Origin: Dictyostelium discoideum
Lineage: Eukaryota
Direction of reading: 5' to 3'
DNA: 64,000 nt
Assembly (NCBI GenBank): GCA_000004695.1
Contig: CM000150.2
Location: 3,168,001-3,232,000, forward strand
The position numbers and the translations under genes are program-made. The notes under the pieces are model-generated. The model had not been told where the DNA came from and searched no databases. It worked only from the letters and a program-made list of their open reading frames with translations. How positions within the stretch are numbered: the first letter of the stretch is position 1; every line of letters starts with the position of its first letter. Shown here in pieces: positions 8,439 through 32,477 of this stretch.

Positions 8439-10074
8439 ATGGATAACCATTCAAGTTCATCCAATCCCTCTTCTTTATCATCGTCGTCATCGTCATCATC
8501 ATCATCATCATCATTTTTATCAGATCATGTCAAAAAAGAAGAACAAAATGGTTTGGATACCATTAAAGAAGAAATTGAAAATAAAATAGAAAATGAAGAA
8601 GAGGAGGAAAAGATAGAAGAGAAACCCATAGAAAAAGTGGAAGAAGAAAAAATCATAGTACAGAAAGAAGAGGAAGAAAAGATAGAAGAGGAACCAATAG
8701 AAAAAGAAGAAGAAAAAAAGGTAGAAGAAGAGAAATTTGAACAAGATAATATAAATACTACGGTTGAAGCAAAAACTCTAGAAACTTCAACAGAACCTAT
8801 AGCAACAGAGGTTGTAGATGAGAAGTCCATAACCTCTAATAATGAAAATTTAGAAGAACAACAAAAGGAAGATGTTATTTCAATACCACCACCTCAACAA
8901 GAACAACAAGAACAACAAGAACAACAAGAAAAACAAAAAGAAGAAACAAAACCAAGTATTAGAGAAGAAGTTAAAGAGAAAATTAAAGGTAAACTTAGTG
9001 AAATTAAAGAAGAAATTAAAGATATAAAAGAAGAGATTAAACATGTAATTAGAGAGGAAGTTACGGAGCCTATAATAGTGGTTGAAAATAATAATTCTCC
9101 ACCACCGCCACCACCACCACCATCAATTACAGTTCAAAGTTCATCACCAGTTTCATCACAAATTTCATCACCAGTTTCATCACCAGTTTCATCACCTAAA
9201 CCTTCTGTTACATTTAATGAAGATGGTAGAAAAAGGAAAGAAGGTGGCATAACAGCAAGTATCTCATCAGAGGATATTATGGCACTATCATCATCAACCT
9301 CTACTAATAATAAAGGTATTCCAAAAGAGAATAAAAGGACAGCTTCAACGATTTTAAGATCAAAATCATCACCAAATCCAGGTGCAAATAATCCAAATCA
9401 TAATAAAGATGGTAATAATTCATCATCATCATCATCATCAAATAATAATAGTGATAATAATAATAATAGTGATAATAATAGTAATAATAATAATATAAAT
9501 AATAATAATAGTAGTAGTAATAATTTAAATTATGATTCATCAGATATTGATACTGAAGCAATACCAAAATTTTATCATGATTTTAAAATACATAGAGGTA
9601 CATCATCATGTGTTTATTGTGGAGAGAATACAAGATTATGGTCAACAAGTTATAAATGTTTTTTTTGTGGTGTAGTTTGTCATAAGAAATGTTTAGATTC
9701 AATGAATACAATTCCATGTTCATCGGCTATTCATAATATTAAAGGTAAAAATCGTAGTCAAACTATTAGTGGTTATGCACCACCAAATTCTTTAGCATTA
9801 CAAGCTCCACCATACATTTCTGTTGCAAAACCATCTTCAATTACAAATTCAAGTTCAAAATCAACACCATCATTATTATCTGCACCACCTTCACAATCAA
9901 ATTCAAATAATTCATCACCAAATATATCAAGTAAAAGTAATCCAAATTCACCAATAACTACATCTGCAACAACCACAACAACAACAGCAACAATTTCATC
10001 ATTATCACCAACATCAATATCAAGTCCACCAATTGCATCAGAACAACCACCATCACCACTATTACAACAACAGC

Positions 10075-15486: not shown

Positions 15487-17815
15487 TTAATAAATTTGTT
15501 TTGGTTTTCTAACTAAAACCATAACTTTGTTAACACCTTTTGGTAAATTTGATTTAAATTCAGAGCCAACTTCAAAGCCATGATGTTGAAAGAATTCAAT
15601 AGAGTTGTTTTCGAAAACTACTGTTCTTGTTTCAACACCATTATGATCAGCCCAATTTAAAACATTTTCAATCATATGAGAACCAATACCATTACCTCTG
15701 AAAATCTCAGAGGTACAACAATATGCTAAGAACCAATGATTACATGAAGAGGATGAGGAGGAGGAGGAACCTTTAAAAGTTTGTAAATTTGATGTACTTG
15801 TATTTGGATTATTATTATTATTTTGAGCCATTGATAATATATTATCATCAAAACGCATAAGATCTAAAATTAAACCAACTCTTTTTAAACCAATTTTAGT
15901 GACTAAACTAAGGGAACCCTTTATACAATCGGATAATCTAATCTCTTTCTTTTTCTCTGGATTTAACCAAACGAAACAACTAACCATTGTACCATCGATA
16001 GCGAAATAACCCCAAATACTGCAATTATAACTTGAGAGTACTTTTAAAATATATTTGTAAAGATGTTGAAGATGAGGTATTGAATGAGGATCCGATGGTG
16101 GAAATATATTGAAAAATCTTGGATCCTTCACAAAAGAAGTAGCCAAAAGTAATGAAGCCTCTTGAAAATGTGATTTATCCAATTGTTTTCTAATGCCTTT
16201 GATGGTATTCTCTCTTTTAATTACCACTCTTTCCTTCAATAAAGAGGTATCCATTTTTTGTAGGGTTTCAATAATTGATTCAATCGATGGTCTAAATGTT
16301 GGATTCTTTGAGATCATTGATAACACCAATGGTGCTAATTTTTCATATTTCTCTGGGAATGTCGAAAGGAATTGCATTGAATCGAAACGATCATTCAACA
16401 TATCCTCACCTAAATAGATACGATTATGTGATAATAGTTTCAATGTTATCAACTCATAGAATATACAACCCAATGAGAAAATATCAGTGGTTTTATCATA
16501 GGTTGAATTTAATATTTCTGGCGAAGAATAACAATATGTACCAACAGTCTCACTATGAATACTACCAGTATGATGAGCTGATTGAATTGCTAACCCAAAA
16601 TCACCAATCTTTAATTTATTTGAACCACTAATGAATATATTTTCAGATTTTAAATCTCTATGAATCATTGATGCCCTATGTAAGGCTTGTACTCCATAAC
16701 TTAAATCTAATAACCATTCAATTAATTGAGTTTGTTCAATTAAATAAATTGAATCAACACCTTTTTTAATTTCATTTGAATGTATAACATGTTCTTCAAT
16801 ATTTAAATTTGACGATGACGATGATGAATGAGTAGTGTTGGTAGTGGTAGTAGTAGTAGCAGCAGTAGTGTGGTTACTATTATCTTTTTTAAATATCTTT
16901 TTTGTTAAATCAACAGTCATCTTTACAATACATTTTCTTTCTTTTAAACTACATTTCTTTTTTCTTTCAGATTTTGATGATTTTCTTTGAGGTGATGTTA
17001 CTGGATGTTGTTGTGGTGATAATGGTGATGATGGTGATGATGGTGATGAAGGTGATGATGGTGATGATGGTGATGATGGTGATGCAGTAGTTGCAGTAGT
17101 TGTACCAGCAAGTGTTGGTGTTGATATTGAATGTCTATTATTTGGTGTTGTTGTTGTTATTGGTGGTGTAGTTGCATTTGTTGGTGATGTTGTACCATTA
17201 ACTAATGATGAAGATGAATGTGAATGTTGAATAGTATTATTATTATTATTCTCTAATAATAAAGCTGCTTCAAAATTAGTTGATGAAGATGAACTTGTTC
17301 TACTAGTTGTAGAATCAATATCACTACCAGTATATTCACTACCAAGATTTAATGATGATAACTCTGATCCTAATGTAACTGTATGATGATGTTGTGGCTC
17401 TGATAATTCAATTAAAAAATCTAATAAATCTCCCATCTCACAAAATTCCATCATAATTGTAATTTCAATTTGGTCACCAATTTGTGTCATAATTGCATCC
17501 TCAAATCTAACTGTATTTGGATGCACAATTCTAGCCAATGACATTGCCTAAAAATAATAATAATAATAATAATAAAAATATTTTTAAAAATTTAATATAA
17601 ATATTAGTTAAATAAAATCAAAGTTAGAAAAAAAAAAAAAAAAAAAAAAATTAAAACATTACCTCTTTTAAACCTTGATTTGCATCTTTTAAATTATCAA
17701 ATAGTCTTTTTTTACCAACATATTTAACACCATCTTTTTCATATAAAATTGCTTTTCCTTCACCTCCTGATCTAAGGTCTTTAATTAATTTATATGATGA
17801 TAATGGGTCCTCCAT
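15487..17815 (-). CDS. NEK-like Ser/Thr protein kinase fused to a C-terminal GNAT N-acetyltransferase domain
   Basis: Minus strand. Exon 1 is 17663..17815 (MEDPLSSYKLIKDLRSGGEGKAILYEKDGVKYVGKKRLFDNLKDANQGLKE: glycine loop plus the beta3 lysine), with a GTAATG donor. The intron is 17549..17662. Exon 2 is 15487..17548 and begins AMSLARIVHPNTVRF..., carrying HRDLKSENIF, DFGLA and GTYCYSSPE. A low-complexity insert of about 250 aa (S/T/N-rich) lies inside the kinase domain. The C-terminus has GNAT motif A, FRGNGIGSHMIENVLNWADHNGVETRTVVFENNSIEFFQHHGFEV. Kinase and GNAT lie in one uninterrupted reading frame. Confidence 0.8.
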
Positions 17816-22840: not shown

Positions 22841-23418
22841 ATGGGTCCTAAAAAAGGAAAGAGGTCACATTCAAAAAACCATCATCACCATAATAATGGA
22901 AATAATAATAATAATAACAATAGTGGTGGTGGTAGTAGTAGTGATATTTTATATACATATAGTCAAGATACAAGAATATTATTATTTAAAGTGATATTAA
23001 CACAAAATGAAGAGATTATATGTATGGTTATACAAATTGCCTATGGATTACCAGGTTTACCAAAGATATCAGACATTTCTAGAGATTTAGGTATATTAAT
23101 ATTAAAATTACCAAATAGAACAATTAGAGAATTAGAATTATTTTTAGAATCTAAAAATATTTATTTTCGTGAAGATCAACATATAAATTATTTAAATGAA
23201 ATACCACAACCAACTACAACTACAACATCACCACCACCACCACCACCACCATCATCAATTTCAACAACAACAACAACAACAACAGCAACAGCAATAGAAA
23301 TTGAATCATCATCGGGACTAACATCAAATATAACAGATTCAACAGAAATTCAATTAGATTCAACTACGACTGATACAAAAACTACATCAACAACATCAAC
23401 AACAACAAATAATAGTAG

Positions 23419-23459
<41 letters not shown>

Positions 23460-23873
23460 GTAATAATATTTTAAATTTTCCATTTAATTGTCAAAATAAA
23501 TCAAAACAAAAAAGACCAATTTCAAAAGAAGAATCATTTAATAAAATGGTTCAATATAATTTTGATTTAGGTAAAATTTTCGATGAGTTTACAAGAGAAG
23601 TTTTATTAGATGATTTAAAGAATGATTTAAAGATTGATAATATACCCATTGACAATATATCAATATCACCAACACCAATCATTTCACCAGTTTTTCAAGA
23701 ATATGATTTGTTTTTAATGGATTCTTTCATTATACTTTGTGGTCAATTAGATAATGTAAAATTAACATTAGAAGAATTTAAAGATTATTATAAAAAGTAT
23801 ATATATATATTTTCATTTTATATGTTAACATTAATATTCATCATTATTTTAATTAACTTAAAATATTAATTAA

Positions 23874-23967
<94 letters not shown>

Positions 23968-24647
23968 TTTAGATATAAATTATTAAATCAATATATTGAA
24001 GATTTTAAAGATAATTTAATAAATGATTTTTTAGTAACAGTAGAGATATTAGCTAGTTGGTATATACCACAAAAGGATTATTCAATTGTTAAATTTATAA
24101 ATTGTTTTGGAGAAATGTTAGATTCAACGATTATAGAGAGTTTTTCATACATTTTCAATAAGACTATAAAGAAAGAGGATGATTGGTCAATTTCATTCAT
24201 TCAAGCGGCACTTGGATCCAATGAAGAATTTAAGAGACAAGTGATGTGTTTAAATGATGAATTAATTCAAGATAGATATGATCAATCATTGTATAGTATA
24301 ATGCATCCAATTAAATTTGACAATGTTAGAGAGTTTATTCTAATCTATAGTAGAGATGAAAATTATTTTGAACCACAAGAATTTTGGTATCTAATTTGTA
24401 AATACGATGCAATTGCAATCACTCAACATATAATCAACAATAATATAGCCGAAGAGGATCTATCCAAAAGATCAGGTAAAACCTATAATTCAAACTTGTC
24501 TGAAAATCCATTAGAAATCAATCCTCTAAGTTTATTAGAAATTTGTTCTGCAAATTTCTCTCATAAAATTGCATCAATCTTATTTCAATTTTATGATTTT
24601 AAAGATTCAATGCCAACAAGATTTAGTTTAAGAGGTGTTTTTAAACC

Positions 24648-24701
<54 letters not shown>

Positions 24702-27534
24702 AGATAAAGATGAAAAAGATAAAGAAAATAATAATAATAATGTAATATCACAACAATTTCAATATTTTAGAGTTTTAGATGTAAATTGTTATTTTAATGA
24801 TGTAATTAAAAAGAGAGCACCAATATTTATAGATTTAATGACACAATCAAATATTTATTTAAATACAGAGGTTGGTGAAGGATCGGATGAAAATGTTGAT
24901 ACTCATGAATCGATTTATTCATTTCAGAATAGTACCGAGTATTTAGCTATCAATTCAAATAGTATTCATAGATTGAAGAGGTCATCGATATCTTTACTTT
25001 CAAAGGTATTGGAATTTAATGATCGTGATACTTTGATATCGCTATTAAAGAATTTGACACAGGGTGGTTGTACATTATGCAAGGACCTAATTGACGAAAA
25101 ACAATTACTAATTACAATTAGTAGACCCCAATATCACCAAAGTATACAGATTCTACACCAAAATGGGTATACCATCATACCGAAATACCAACTACGTGAT
25201 CCTTACATCTTTTTTGCAGGCTCCAAACAAATCTTACAATATCTATTGGAAATTCACACAAATTCCCTCTCGGAGACTATAGATATCAGACACTGGATTC
25301 AGGCGATCATGAGTGCAGGTCAGTATAGCTCAGAGACTGAATTCTTTCAATACTATCCAAAGATTCAAGAATTATCATTACGCGATAAATATTCAAGAAC
25401 TTTAAATATTTTAGAATTACAATATATCCTTGGCCATATCGAAGGTATAGAATTCTTACTTGAGAAATATTTAGATTTCACTAAACCCTATCATTTAGAT
25501 AATCAAGAACTTTTAGAAATTTTCGATGTAACTTTTGTTCAAAAAAAAGATATTAGAACTGAAGAATCTTTAAAAGCTGAAAAAGATTTATTAGAACAAG
25601 AAGAAAATGAAAAAAAACGTTTAAAAGAAAAAAGAAAAAAAGAAGAAAAAGAAAAAAAAAAACAACAAAATTTAAAACAAAAATCTTTAATAACTAATAA
25701 TACTACTACTACTACTACTACTACACCAATACCAATTACAGTACCAATACCAACACAAACACAAACACCAACACAAACACCAACACAAACACCAATACCA
25801 ACACCAATACCAACAACACCAATACCAACAACACCAATACCAATACCAATTCAATTGACACCAACAACACCAAAAACACCAAAAACACCAAAAACACCAA
25901 AAACACCAACAACACCAAAAACACCAATAACACCCAAAACACCAAAAAATTCTACTTTAGATAAACAAACAATTTCAACACCAAAAACACCACCACCTTT
26001 ATCAGTAAATACAACACCAATAACACCATCACCACCACCACAAACTATAGCTACAACAATAACAACAACAACAACAACACCAAAAACAACAAAAACAACA
26101 ACAACATCAAAAATACCGACATTAATAATAGAATTAAATAAATATGATATTTCAATTGGTAAATTTAAATTTAGTAGAAAAGATGAATTTATAATTGGTA
26201 GAGGATCAAATGGTACATTAGTTTTTAAAGGTATTTGGAATGATAGAATACCAGTTGCAATTAAACAAATGCATAAAGCTTTTAATCCATTAATTAGTAA
26301 AGAGATTGAAGTATTAATTACATTAACAAATAAGAATTGTAATAACATCGTAAGATATATTGATCAAGAAGAAGATGATATGTTTGTTTATTTAGGTTTA
26401 ACATTATGTAATGGTTCTTTACAAAATTTAGTTGAAAAAGATTTAGAAATTAATTTAATATCAACATCAAATAATGAAAATAATAATAATAATAAATTAA
26501 AGAATTTTATTGGTTCAGAATTAAGATTATTAGAATTAATTAAAGATATTGTTTATGGTATTCAATTTTTACATCAACAAGGTATAGTTCATAATGATTT
26601 AAATCCAAGGAATATTTTAATTAAAGATGATAGATTCATTATATCGGATTTAGGGTTAAGTAAAATGGAAGTAACTTCGTCATACTCATTTACGATGCAT
26701 GCTCCAACTGGTCAAGAAGGTTTTCATCCGGCTGAAGTACTATTAGAGAAACGTAAAACTAAATCTGTTGATATCTTTTCAATGGGTTGTATTCTATTTT
26801 ATTTAATGACTGGTGGTCAACATCCATTTGGTGATAAATTCTTTAGAATGGCTAATATTTTAACAGATAAACCAATTCTAGAACCATTGAAACATAATTT
26901 AGTAGCATGTGATTTAATTAGTCAAATGATATCAAAAAATGAATCTGATAGACCAACTACTGAAAATATACTTTTACATCCATTCTTTTGGAATCATGAA
27001 AAGAAAGTTAAATTCATTGATGCTTCTTTAAATTTATTTAAAGATTCAAATGGTTTATTCACTTCAAAATTAAATAAATTAATTAATCAATTTCAAGATA
27101 CTGATGGTGTTAATACAACAAGCACACCATTTCTTTCGAAACCATGGAATCAATTAATTGATCCAACTTTAATTGAACATATTACAAATAAACAAAATCA
27201 ATTAAGTGGTGGTAGTAGTATTGGAAATAATAATAATAATAGTTTGACATTAAGTGGTAAAAAATTTTATTTTTATGATTATTCTCAAGTAAAAGATTTA
27301 GTACGTTGTATTAGAAATACAATACAACATCATAAAGAGATTCAAAGATTAATTTCACAATCACCATCATCATCAAATAAACAAGAAGTGTTGGATTGTT
27401 TAGAGAGTCAAGAATTAGTTTTATCTTATTTTGAAGAAAAAGTTCCCGACCTTTTACTCTTTCTTTATCAAAAGTTTAAAAAACATTTGGATTCAAAATC
27501 CTTAATTTATTTTAATGATTTAATTATTAAATAA
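22841..27534 (+). CDS. IRE1/RNase L-like protein: large N-terminal region + (pseudo)kinase domain + KEN endoribonuclease domain (paralog A)
   Basis: Exon 1 is 22841..23796 with a GTATAT donor. The intron is 23797..23972 and contains an (ATT)~29 tract. Exon 2 is 23973..27534. The kinase domain (about 26130-27000) has [18 protein letters not shown], a catalytic loop HNDLNPRN in place of HRDLKPxN, and DLG in place of DFG. The KEN domain has [19 protein letters not shown], and a motif [16 protein letters not shown] matching the IRE1/RNase L catalytic block RNxxxHH. A Thr/Pro-rich linker (TPK repeats) precedes the kinase. Confidence 0.8.
23878..23966. repeat. (ATT)~29 intronic microsatellite in kinase-KEN paralog A
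   Basis: Lies inside intron 23797..23972. Confidence 0.85.
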
Positions 27535-27805
27535 AATAAAATTATATTAAACCAACAAAATTTAAAAAAAAAAAAAAAAAAAAAACATAAAATTGTTAAT
27601 CTTTCCAGAAAAAATAAAAAAAATATAATTGGATATAACAAAGTATAATTGACCATGATGGTTTCTGATAAAAAAAAGTGGGGACCAACTACTGATGTTT
27701 TTTTTTTTTCAGTTTTTTTTTTTTTATAATTTTTTACGAAAAAAAAAAAATAAATTAAAAAAATTAAAAATTAAAAAAAAATAATTAATTTAATCCGAAT
27801 CATAT

Positions 27806-27967: not shown

Positions 27968-28292
27968 ATGAAAAGTAATTACAGTACATATCTTTATAAA
28001 ATGTCAGAATTAGAAAGGATAGTGAATGGTGGTGACGTTTCAAGTATTTTCATTGAACAAGATGATGTATTAGGTGAAATTAAAAACTTTAACTATGATT
28101 TATATACAAAATATGATTCATTAGTTTTAAAAGATCCTCAAACTCAAAATAATTCACCAAAACCACCAAGCCTAGAAATATTTATACTAGTTAATTTAAT
28201 AGCGTTATGTGGTAGAATTAATGATAAATTTCCAAATTTAGATAAATTTTTAACTCATTATAAATATGCGTATGTATTTTAAATTATTTTAA

Positions 28293-28382
<90 letters not shown>

Positions 28383-29101
28383 AATATAATAGTACTAATA
28401 TATTTAACTTATTAAGTGAAAATATTATAAATTCTATTGAAAAATTTAAAGAAACATTATCAAAAGATTTACCAAGTTTTCAATTATCAGTTATAGCGAA
28501 TAGTTCAATTGTAAAAAAAGATAATTCAATTATAAAGTTTTTAAGTTGTTTTGGATCATTTATGAAATTAGAATCAATTGAATATTTTGGATCAGTATTT
28601 AATAGTTTAATAGGAGAAGAGGACCAATTCTCATTAGATTTATTACAAGTTTTAATTGATAGTTCAAATGAATATAAAAAGTTTTTACAAATTTTAGAAT
28701 TTAATCAATTACAAAAATATTATGATGATGGTCATCTTTGTTTATTTCATTCAATTAAATTTGATAATTTAAATGAATTTAAATTATTATTTAATGATTC
28801 TACTTGGTGTCAACAGCAACAGCAGCAACAACAAATAAATCCTCAAATATTTTGGTTTATACTTTGTAAATATAATTCATCAAAAATTGCCCATTATCTT
28901 TTAAATGATTATCAAATTAATAAAAAATCATTAAAACAAAAGAATCCATTAGAAATTAGTCCTGTAACTCTATTAGAAATCGCTTTCTTATGTTTTAGTG
29001 ATAAAATTGCAATTGTATTATTTTCACAATTTAATTATCATGAATTATTACCAAAGAAATCAAAAATGAAACATTTAATTAAATCAACTTCAACTTTAAT
29101 A

Positions 29102-29195
<94 letters not shown>

Positions 29196-32100
29196 GTAAA
29201 AATATCGGATTAACACAATATACAGTTTTAGAAGGTTATTTTTTAATTAATATTAGAACAAGGAGTAGGATAGCACCATTTATCGAAGTTTTAACAATGA
29301 ATGGTATCCATTTAACAAATGATATAATACATACTAGAATTAAATCAATGAGTTCTGATTCAATATTTAGAATATTTACAGAACAATACCAACAACAACA
29401 ACAGAATCCACTAAATAATAATCAAAAACAAATTCAATTTAATGAAAATTTCACAAGACAACAAAAAATAGATTTCGATAATTGTCCAAATGAAATTGAT
29501 ACTTTTATTTTAGATAAAACTCAATGTAATTTAATAACATTATCTCAAGAGTTTTCAATCAAAGTTAGAGCATTCACATTTTATTTGTCATTTGGTGAAA
29601 TATTCACTTGTTCTTGTGAAGACTATAAAAGAGAATTCTCTTGTAAACATATGTTTTTCATTCTTTTAAATTATTATCATGTTCCAAGAAATTCCTATCT
29701 AATCTATCAAAGACAATTTACAGAGATTGAAAGATATTCAATAATTATGAATATAGATTTAAGTAAAATTAATTCAAGAATATATGGTACTCCAAATTTT
29801 AATACTTTTTTTAAAATTAAATCATCACCATCATCAACAACATCACCATTTCAAAGTATTAATAATAACAATAATAATAATTTAAACAATAATAATAATA
29901 ATAATTTAAATAATAATAATAATAATGAAAATGAAAATAAATTTAAAGAAGATGGTGATGATGAAATTTTACAAAATTTAAATAGATTAAATTATATATT
30001 ATTAAGGGATTTTGAATTTGGACCAAATGATATTACAACTAAACTTCGAGAAACTCATATAAATCTATTTGATAGATTATTACTTATAGAGGATAATTTA
30101 GAGGCATTGGATAAGATATTAAAGAATTTCACTCAAAAAGGTTGTACATTATCAAGGGATTTGGTTGGTGATCGTAATCTATTGGTTTTAGTGGCAATTC
30201 TAGATTCAACTTCAAAAGAGAAACTATCATTATTGAACAAGTATTGGCCATTACCTGAAAAAACGAAAAAGTTTGCTATTCCATTAATTTTCTTTGCAAT
30301 ATCTGAAGAATGTTTAAAAATGTTTATTCAAATCTCTCCAAATTTAGTTAAATCAACTTTAAACTTACATGATTGGATTTCAATTCTAACTGAATTCGCC
30401 TTAATTAATGAAACTTTCTTAGACCATTACCCACTTTTATCCGCTTGGTATAGTGATGCTCGTTCAGTTGAAACCTCATTATTTAGATTATTCACCTGTA
30501 TGGATAAAATAGATTGTATAAATTACTTAATTCAAACCTATCTTTTACCAATTCCAACTTTCAAAAATACTCTAAATAATTTTGAAACTTGTTACTTTTT
30601 TGAAACTTATTTCCTTGAAAACTCCTCAATCAAAGCTGAACAATACTTATTAGAACAGGAACTATTAGAAAAAAAAAAACAAAAAGAAAAAAAAAAACAA
30701 AAACAAAAACAATCAAAATCAAAAATTATTAATAATCCTTTATCATCATCATCATCATCATCATCATCACCATCAACTTCTAATACTACAATCACCTCAA
30801 CAACACCAACAACAACAACAACCACCACCACAACAACAACACCAACAACTACAACAACAACAACAACAACATCATCACCAAAACAAAAACCTATAACTCC
30901 AATTAAAAAAGAAATAGAAAAAGAATTTGAAAAAATTGAACTTACTACACCACCACCACCATTGGCAACAACCAAACAACAACAAATTAATGAAAATTAT
31001 GATATTTCAATTGGTAAATTTAAATTTAATAGAAAAGAAGAGAATGTATTAGGTAGAGGATCAAATGGTACATTAGTTTTTAAAGGTATTTGGAATAATA
31101 GAATTCCAGTTGCAATTAAACAAATGCAAAAGATGTTTAATCCATTAATTAGTAAAGAGATTGAAGTATTAATTACATTAACAAATAAGAATTGTTATAA
31201 CATTGTAAGATATATTGATCAAGAAGAAGATGAATCATGCGTTTATTTAGGTTTAACACTATGTGATGGTTCTTTGCAAAATTTAGTTGAAAAAGGTGAT
31301 AATAACCTGACATTAACTCAATTTTTAGGCTATGATATTAATAGCAGTAGTAAAAATAATTCAAGATTATTAGAACTAATTAAAGATATTGTTTATGGTA
31401 TTCAATTTTTACATCAACAAGGTATAGTTCATAATGATTTAAATCCAAGGAATATTTTAATTAAAGATGATAGATTCATTATATCGGATTTAGGGCTAAG
31501 TAAAATGGAAGTAACTTCATCATACTCATTTACGATGCATGCTCCAACTGGTCAAGAAGGTTTTCATCCGGCTGAAGTACTATTAGAGAAACGTAAAACT
31601 AAATCTGTTGATATCTTTTCAATGGGTTGTATTCTATTTTATTTAATGACTGGTGGTCAACATCCATTTGGTGATAAATTCTATCGTATTGTTAATATTT
31701 TAACAGATAAACCAATCCTCGAACCATTGAAACATAATTTAGTAGCATGTGATTTAATTAGTCAAATGATATCAAAAAATGAATCTGATAGACCAACAAT
31801 TGAAAAAATACTTTTACATCCATTCTTTTGGAATCATGAAAAGAAAGTTAAATTCATTGATGCTTCTTTAAATTTATTTAAAGATTCAAATGGTTTATTC
31901 ACTTCAAAATTAAATAAATTAATTAATTATCAAGAAATTAATTTAAAAAATAATATTGATAGTAGTAGTAGTAATAATAATAATAATATAAATAGTAATG
32001 TAATTAATAATAATAATAATAATAATAATGGTATGGCGACTAATATACCATTTTTATCAAAACCATGGAACCAATTAATTGATCAAACTTTAATTGAACA

Positions 32101-32425
32101 TATAATAAATAAACAAAATCAATTAAATGGTGTCGGTAATAATAAAAAGGTAATAATTTACAGTTTTGATCAAGTAAAAGATTTAGTACGTTGTATTAGA
32201 AATACAATACAACATCATAAAGAGATTCAAAGATTAGTTAGACAATCACCATCATCAAATGGTGATAATAAACAAGAAGTTTTGGATTGTTTAGAGAGTC
32301 AAGAATTAGTTTTATCTTATTTTGAAGAAAAAGTTCCCGACCTTTTACTCTTTCTTTATCAAAAGTTTAAAAAACATTTGGATTCAAAATCCTTAATTTA
32401 TTTTAATGATTTAATAATTAAATAA
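27968..32425 (+). CDS. IRE1/RNase L-like (pseudo)kinase-KEN protein with an extra SWIM-type zinc finger (paralog B)
   Basis: Exon 1 is 27968..28269 with a GTATGT donor. The intron is 28270..28392 and contains an (ATT)~28 tract. Exon 2 is 28393..32425. The intron position and phase (phase 2) match paralog A. A SWIM CxCxnCxH motif ([18 protein letters not shown]) lies at about 29603-29660. The kinase and KEN domains are almost nucleotide-identical to paralog A, including HNDLNPRN and the RNTIQHH motif. Confidence 0.8.
28296..28380. repeat. (ATT)~28 intronic microsatellite in kinase-KEN paralog B (same intron position as in paralog A)
   Basis: Lies inside intron 28270..28392. Confidence 0.85.
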
Positions 32426-32444
32426 TTATATCAATAAAATAGAG

Positions 32445-32477
<33 letters not shown>

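Follow-up and report, generated by a model that had tools for sequence, protein, structure and literature searches.

A predicted MEKK1-type SWIM domain in one of two tandem kinase–KEN paralogs of Dictyostelium discoideum

A stretch of 64,000 nucleotides of the Dictyostelium discoideum genome (GenBank assembly GCA_000004695.1, contig CM000150.2, positions 3,168,001 to 3,232,000; the whole stretch is called the window hereafter) holds two tandem plus-strand genes, paralogs A and B. Each encodes a protein kinase domain directly followed by a Ribonuc_2-5A/KEN domain, and in both paralogs both domains score above the Pfam cut-offs. The pair was listed as the open reading frames (ORFs) 24115..27534 (A) and 28562..32425 (B), both of which are partial genes; residue numbers refer to these ORFs unless the spliced protein is named. 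Based on homology, profile and structure evidence, paralog B very probably carries a genuine SWIM domain of about 80 residues in its N-terminal region, of the type found in MEKK1 (MAP3K1). The favoured reading as a whole, in which this domain also acts as a partner-binding input module of B, is put forward with moderate confidence.

Identity of the SWIM module in paralog B

A reading made from the sequence alone (the sequence-only reading) had proposed a SWIM-type zinc finger in paralog B, with CxCx(n)CxH in a string of 27 residues. This string is encoded in frame at nucleotides 29603–29683, inside an unbroken ORF of 1287 codons, and the GC content of the motif region (0.23) is coding-like compared with 0.02 in the intron of the gene. 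The pattern CxCx6-25CxH occurs once only in the six frames of the window, namely in B. Upon shuffling of protein B it arose in 39 of 20,000 shuffled sequences (p about 0.002).

Residues 215–429 of B alone were used as query in an exhaustive phmmer (HMMER) search of 1.84 billion representative proteins at E ≤ 1e-3. The search returned 17 matches, nearly all of them on the finger (query positions ~110–195), with E values between 6.7e-8 and 1e-3 for the true SWIM matches. A CxCxnCxH pattern is aligned to that of B in 15 of the 17. The true matches form two groups, i.e. short proteins that combine SWIM with a RING-H2 domain and dictyostelid proteins named “SWIM-type domain-containing” in UniRef. 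Scanning ten matches with Pfam placed five above the gathering threshold of the SWIM family (PF04434, 19.6 bits), with 27–33 bits for the SWIM and RING proteins P0014, P0018 and P0019, and 23–24 bits for the SWIM-only proteins P0016 and P0017. Transposase-type relatives are absent from the matches, and a MuDR/FAR1-type transposon origin of the finger was rejected.

Two matches, P0010 (the top score) and P0012, were treated as spurious, as they are repetitive or of low complexity and contain no CxC. P0010, a protein of 488 residues from an ENA metagenome, is a sevenfold tandem repeat (...YQEECGVCFSCKHNQ...HIPRRMRC...) with no CxC knuckle. It may consist of a SWIM-like unit that was repeated and has degenerated, or the match may be spurious.

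In an alignment of 17 SWIM modules, the four ligands C350, C352, C361 and H363 are the only invariant columns, and 16 of the 17 modules match Pfam SWIM at E ≤ 0.1. Comparison of the 17-sequence profile with the PDB sequences revealed PDB 9p40 (“MEKK1 SWIM and RING domains”), matched along 77 positions with an E value of 6.7e-12 and with the helical extension included. The B segment alone gave no match to PDB sequences in phmmer, and MEKK1 was reached by the 17-sequence profile only.

The AlphaFold2 (AF2) model of the B segment, predicted with 17 further SWIM homologues, reached a mean predicted local distance difference test score (pLDDT) of 79.9 and a predicted template modelling score (pTM) of 0.70, with pLDDT values of 88–94 over segment residues 21–100. 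In the model, three strands are followed by helices; C350 is found at the end of a strand, C352 in the next turn, C361 just before the helix, and H363 in the first turn of this helix. The structure prediction suggested in the sequence-only reading points to a strand–strand–strand–helix core, modelled with high pLDDT. Fold searches gave nothing significant, and a word-index search with the SWIM region found no match in a collection that excludes the window's own proteins. In summary, the exhaustive homology search, the profile match to MEKK1, the invariance of the ligands, the AF2 model and the conservation in Dictyostelium purpureum (see below) support the earlier call of a SWIM-type finger in B.

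The tandem pair and its N-terminal halves

The window is extremely AT-rich, with a GC content of 0.14–0.33. The frames of A and B are open 5′ of the listed ATGs, and each gene is preceded by a homologous first exon and a (TAT)n-rich intron of the same phase and position. Splicing of B (27968–28269 and 28393–32425) gives a single frame of 1444 codons for a protein of 1444 residues. By their lengths, the two proteins would correspond to irlC (B) and irlD (A) of D. discoideum, names that are provisional. The coordinates of all features are collected in Table 1.

The best solved relatives of the kinase domains are IRE1 structures (E 1.7e-43), and the Rx4H motif (CIRNTIQHH) is visible in the translations of both A and B. 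Rx4-6H is the catalytic motif of HEPN/KEN ribonucleases (RNases) (PMC3710099). On this basis, both paralogs are assigned from their sequences to the IRE1/RNase L-like kinase–KEN group, the irl group of Dictyostelium, and RNase activity is predicted for them. The Dictyostelium kinome includes seven members of the IRE family. RNase L-type domains are present in all of them and only IreA appears to be membrane-bound; for the other members it was suggested that they might accept tyrosine (PMC1420674). The catalytic loop reads HNDLNPRN in B (31400–31480), with an equivalent in A, as compared to HRDLKPQN in IRE1 and HNDINPRN in D. purpureum, and the loop is also kept in Acytostelium. The DFG position of the kinase is DLG in both window paralogs and DMG in Acytostelium.

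The catalytic halves of A and B are nearly identical (91.5% nucleotide identity in the kinase domain and 82.7% in the KEN domain), whereas the N-terminal halves are barely alignable. Nei–Gojobori estimates of synonymous divergence (dS) follow the same division, with 0.14 for the kinase and 0.22 for KEN versus 1.0 and 2.6 (saturated) in two N-terminal blocks. The similar part extends over 30985–32471 in B and 26132–27592 in A; the N-terminal halves (28562–30700 and 24115–25600) show about 30% protein identity. The pattern suggests gene conversion that has homogenised the 3′ halves, or a recent partial duplication that has replaced one of them. With catalytic halves this close and N-terminal halves this far apart, any functional difference between A and B would lie in the N-terminal regions.

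Within these regions, segment 256–493 of B (about 240 residues), flanked by blocks shared with A, faces about 33 residues in A. CxCxnCxH is absent from paralog A, upstream exon included. Paralog A therefore appears to be devoid of the entire domain rather than to carry a ligand-less version of it. The contrast drawn in the sequence-only reading holds in so far as B has the finger and A has no such motif. Conversely, the stretch of A that had been quoted as the homologous one has no homology to the finger; its counterpart in BLASTP is a part of B about 200 residues further downstream. The related proposal that the two paralogs are targeted differently fits the diverged N-terminal and near-identical catalytic halves, with the correction that the domain is wholly missing in A instead of having its ligands substituted.

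SWIM is the sole recognisable domain in the N-terminus of B, which comprises some 800–950 residues. A degenerate ankyrin domain in the N-terminus of A or B was considered and rejected: Pfam reported no ankyrin, hhalign against the ankyrin-bearing Acytostelium protein P0004 gave 0.1%, and the AF2 model is helical at low confidence (pLDDT 51).

Elsewhere in the pair, the Thr/Pro/Ser-rich linkers of A and B are faced on the minus strand by Val/Gly-rich ORFs of 165 residues (25851–26348) and 122 residues (30607–30975), which almost certainly arise as artefacts from the low complexity of the coding strand. A further minus-strand ORF of the window (15487–17544, 685 residues) joins a kinase domain (Pfam 115 bits) to a C-terminal GNAT acetyltransferase domain (30 bits), which is an uncommon fusion.

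Table 1. Positions in the window of the features of paralogs A and B.
Feature	Position	Strand	Description and basis
SWIM zinc-ligand core of B, C-S-C-x8-C-K-H	29609..29650	+	predicted ligands C350, C352, C361, H363 (ORF) = C507, C509, C518, H520 (spliced)
Whole SWIM module of B	29528..29761 (ORF ~323-400)	+	three strands, zinc knuckle, helix, helical extension; span from hhalign, AF2, phmmer
B-specific segment with SWIM module and Asn-rich tract	29327..30040 (ORF ~256-493)	+	BLASTP and MAFFT of A, B and D. purpureum ORF
B protein kinase domain, IRE1-like	31037..31828	+	catalytic loop HNDLNPRN; Pfam Pkinase 124 bits
B KEN / Ribonuc_2-5A domain	32054..32389	+	RNTIQH (Rx4H); Pfam PF06479 42 bits, cut-off 23.3
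Paralog B exon 1	27968..28269	+	ORF, GTATGT donor at 28270; homologous to end of A exon 1
Paralog B intron	28270..28392	+	(TAT)n-rich, GC 0.02, phase 2; GTATGT...AG boundaries
Paralog B exon 2	28393..32425	+	holds listed ORF 28562..32425; frame open upstream of listed ATG, homologous to A there
Paralog A	22841..27534 (exons 22841-23796, 23973-27534)	+	1505 residues, kinase–KEN, no SWIM; Pfam and gene model
Paralog A intron	23797-23972	+	(TAT)n-rich
A stretch quoted in the sequence-only reading (ISRPQYHQ...KYQL)	25117..25194 (A ORF ~335-360)	+	BLASTP aligns to B ORF 546-571, not SWIM
A position matching the SWIM-bearing segment of B	24871..24969 (A ORF ~253-285)	+	no domain; BLASTP, MAFFT

Conservation in other dictyostelids

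The kinase–KEN query found a D. purpureum protein of 249 residues, P0002 (DICPUDRAFT_92689; GL871219.1). Directly upstream of it lies an unannotated ORF of 903 codons (L001:6917-9625) that is continuous into the kinase N-lobe. DICPUDRAFT_92689 is thus, from the sequence, a fragment, and its missing N-terminus, SWIM finger and kinase N-lobe are predicted to be encoded by L001:6917-9625. The D. purpureum kinase domain seems to be split by a short intron near 9590–9650 of L001.

At the position aligned with the finger of B, the D. purpureum ORF reads FFCQCNHFKELQSPCIHFFIILKYYNIP, i.e. CxCx9CxH followed by the same hydrophobic helix. All four ligands are kept. CxCxnCxH occurs once only in the six frames of this 20.7-kb locus. 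Identity between B and D. purpureum is 42.5% over the 40 residues of the SWIM block as compared to about 27% for the N-terminal region overall, and the block is among the few N-terminal blocks that tblastx detects between the two. Conversely, three Acytostelium homologues with long N-termini show no SWIM-like pattern even when the motif is defined less strictly, and none was found in the remaining kinase–KEN relatives that were retrieved.

Outside the SWIM block, the N-terminal blocks shared between A and B score 98 and 75 bits, those between B and D. purpureum 64 and 22 bits, and that between A and D. purpureum 51 bits. With D. purpureum as outgroup to the pair, an ancestral finger that was deleted in A would be the most parsimonious history, although synonymous sites are saturated in the N-terminal halves. 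As to whether the finger was lost in A or gained in B, a question raised in the sequence-only reading, the balance tips slightly towards loss: the last ancestor shared by B and the D. purpureum gene would already have had the finger, and A would later have deleted it. If the module was inserted instead, the dictyostelid SWIM family is a plausible donor, given identities to B of 41% and 38% and shared signatures (see below).

The Acytostelium set also contains a protein with the architecture of RNase L. P0004 (A. subglobosum DF837578.2, L004:8001-18190) combines faint ankyrin repeats with kinase and KEN, and four ankyrin-repeat genes follow in a row downstream of it. Two further tandem irl-like genes are found on L003.

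Comparison with known systems and possible role of the finger

B and MEKK1 have the same SWIM subtype, composed of strands (predicted in B), CxC...CxH, a hydrophobic helix and a conserved helical extension (VPxxSxLxYQ in B), and in both the domain is located far upstream of a C-terminal kinase domain. They differ in that MEKK1 has a RING/PHD E3 domain after SWIM, a TOG domain and a STE-group kinase, whereas B ends in an IRE1-type kinase and a KEN RNase. In the protist and fungal SWIM–RING proteins (ZSWIM2-like; P0014, P0018–P0021, P0023, P0025 and P0026), identity to B is 35–40% over the module, VPRNSxLxYQ included; these are proteins of about 200–500 residues with a C-terminal RING-H2 domain (in those scanned) and neither kinase nor KEN. 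The dictyostelid SWIM proteins comprise Tieghemostelium lacteum DLAC_05226 with FNIP repeats, Polysphondylium violaceum CYY_006442 and D. firmibasis RB653_003722. Here, P0013 shows 38% identity and the metagenomic P0011 is best with 41%, and CxCxDY..CKH and QxxFTxxxRY are common with B. The architectures of these proteins are unrelated to that of B (FNIP repeats or no other domain), with no kinase or KEN.

With regard to its sensor region, B is, judged from its sequence, neither an IRE1 proper nor an RNase L. The sensor of IRE1 consists of a luminal domain in the endoplasmic reticulum and a transmembrane helix, neither of which is recognisable in B (no predictor of transmembrane helices or signal peptides was applied). 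RNase L senses by 2-5A-binding ankyrin repeats, and Pfam finds no ankyrin in the N-termini of A or B. In their place, B has a region predicted by AF2, at low confidence, to be all-helical, and the SWIM domain.

A survey of HEPN/KEN proteins from 2013 gives kinase, ankyrin, CCCH, UBI and BRCT as partners of KEN; SWIM is not among them (PMC3710099). The literature searched contains no paper with both “SWIM” and “KEN domain” and none on SWIM in Dictyostelium irl proteins, and the kinome paper makes no mention of SWIM (PMC1420674). The coupling of SWIM to kinase–KEN, which had been singled out as unusual, is therefore seen in neither the survey nor this literature, and represents a real but modest new domain combination. 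It should be noted that the finger may already be annotated automatically (PROSITE-based, in UniProt or InterPro), as related dictyostelid proteins carry such names.

Several observations weigh against the favoured reading. In the isolated B region SWIM is the only family matched by Pfam, with 13.5–15.3 bits and E values of 0.015–0.15, below the gathering threshold, and it is not reported at all when full-length B is scanned. The test with the PF04434 hidden Markov model (HMM) that the sequence-only reading had suggested thus falls short of the 19.6 bits needed, and the assignment is based on homology, profile and predicted structure instead. A comparison of B with a profile of 15 other SWIM modules in hhalign gave a probability of 99.4% (E 8e-22, 78 columns), a figure inflated by the choice of profile sequences for their similarity to B. 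The D. purpureum finger is eroded, with no Pfam match, an hhalign probability of 34% (E 4e-4) and loss of the YQ extension; the gene is taken as a homologue rather than an orthologue of B, as tblastx of the D. purpureum locus against the window showed no common neighbours. The analogy to MEKK1 is incomplete because no RING follows the SWIM of B (no Cys in ORF residues 375–493 and no Pfam RING match), which also places B outside the SWIM–RING E3 family, with only its SWIM being of that type. Finally, the kinase–KEN comparison set covers relatives other than the remaining irl paralogs of D. discoideum, and no irl orthologue of D. firmibasis was recovered.

Some of these points fit a vestigial or purely structural SWIM, i.e. 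a small fold, stabilised by zinc within a rapidly evolving linker, that neither binds a specific ligand nor serves to set A and B apart. The Pfam score of B and the eroded flanks of the D. purpureum copy speak for it, as do the very rapid evolution of the N-terminus around the finger, with its many low-complexity tracts, and the absence of the domain from paralog A. Still, the four ligands and the next helix have been kept between D. discoideum and D. purpureum in a block that is among the best-conserved pieces of the N-terminus. Moreover, B retains the full module of 78 columns, including the extension common to the SWIM–RING proteins. We consider a vestigial SWIM unlikely.

Direct recognition of RNA or DNA by the finger, which would steer the KEN RNase to particular substrates, is judged very unlikely. 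The output domain of B is an RNase, and Makarova et al. reportedly proposed in 2002, for MuDR transposases and SWI2/SNF2 ATPases, that SWIM binds DNA or interacts with proteins. However, the relatives recovered for B are MEKK1, SWIM–RING and dictyostelid SWIM proteins and not the transposase or helicase types, which is the reason for favouring a protein as partner. The SWIM domain of MEKK1 is described in the literature as a module for protein interaction with c-Jun as a binding partner (PMC7474687, which cites Rieger et al. 2012).

A chance Cys/His pattern in a region that is no domain, or non-coding or intronic sequence read as protein, might be suspected from the low Pfam score and the fold searches, and is effectively refuted by the shuffling result, the recurrence of the motif at the aligned position of D. 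purpureum (alone in the six frames of 20.7 kb), the significant matches to true SWIM proteins among 1.84e9 sequences, the confident AF2 model and the coding GC content of an unbroken 1287-codon ORF as opposed to the one intron measured, with a GC of 0.02.

The KEN RNase of IRE1 and RNase L is switched on by dimerisation, which the N-terminal domain drives upon binding an activating ligand. No input is known for six of the seven Dictyostelium kinase–KEN proteins. In the favoured reading, B would be a cytosolic IRE1/RNase L-like kinase–endoribonuclease of 1444 residues, in which one predicted zinc ion is held by C507, C509, C518 and H520 (spliced numbering). The SWIM domain, stabilised by zinc, would be the module at which a specific partner docks, and this partner is more likely to be a protein than a nucleic acid. 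The domain may thereby provide B with an input or target different from that of A at a kinase–RNase output common to both. This functional step is proposed by analogy, as the N-termini of IRE1 and RNase L sense ligands and the SWIM of MEKK1 is described as protein-binding; we give the docking role a little less than an even chance.

A broader extrapolation, which we regard as quite unlikely, concerns the irl family at large. The expanded set of non-membrane members in dictyostelids might be RNase L-like sensors of the cytosol with exchangeable N-terminal sensor modules and a common kinase–RNase effector, which gene conversion would keep uniform. The SWIM “receptor” of irlC would then bind a specific protein, for example one derived from stress or a pathogen, upon which dimerisation and RNA cleavage would follow. 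If true, KEN nucleases would have an input logic that is new, and amoebae a counterpart of the RNA decay of innate immunity.

In practical terms, the novelty of the result is limited, as it is a domain assignment that holds no mechanistic surprise until a partner or a phenotype is found. Being the sole recognisable domain in the N-terminus of B, SWIM offers a concrete handle for partner hunting, with four residues for point mutants and the SWIM-less tandem paralog A as a natural control. The family of B would be the second kinase family, after MAP3K1, with this SWIM subtype, and the tandem pair presents a pattern in which the catalytic halves appear homogenised and the sensor halves are free to diverge.

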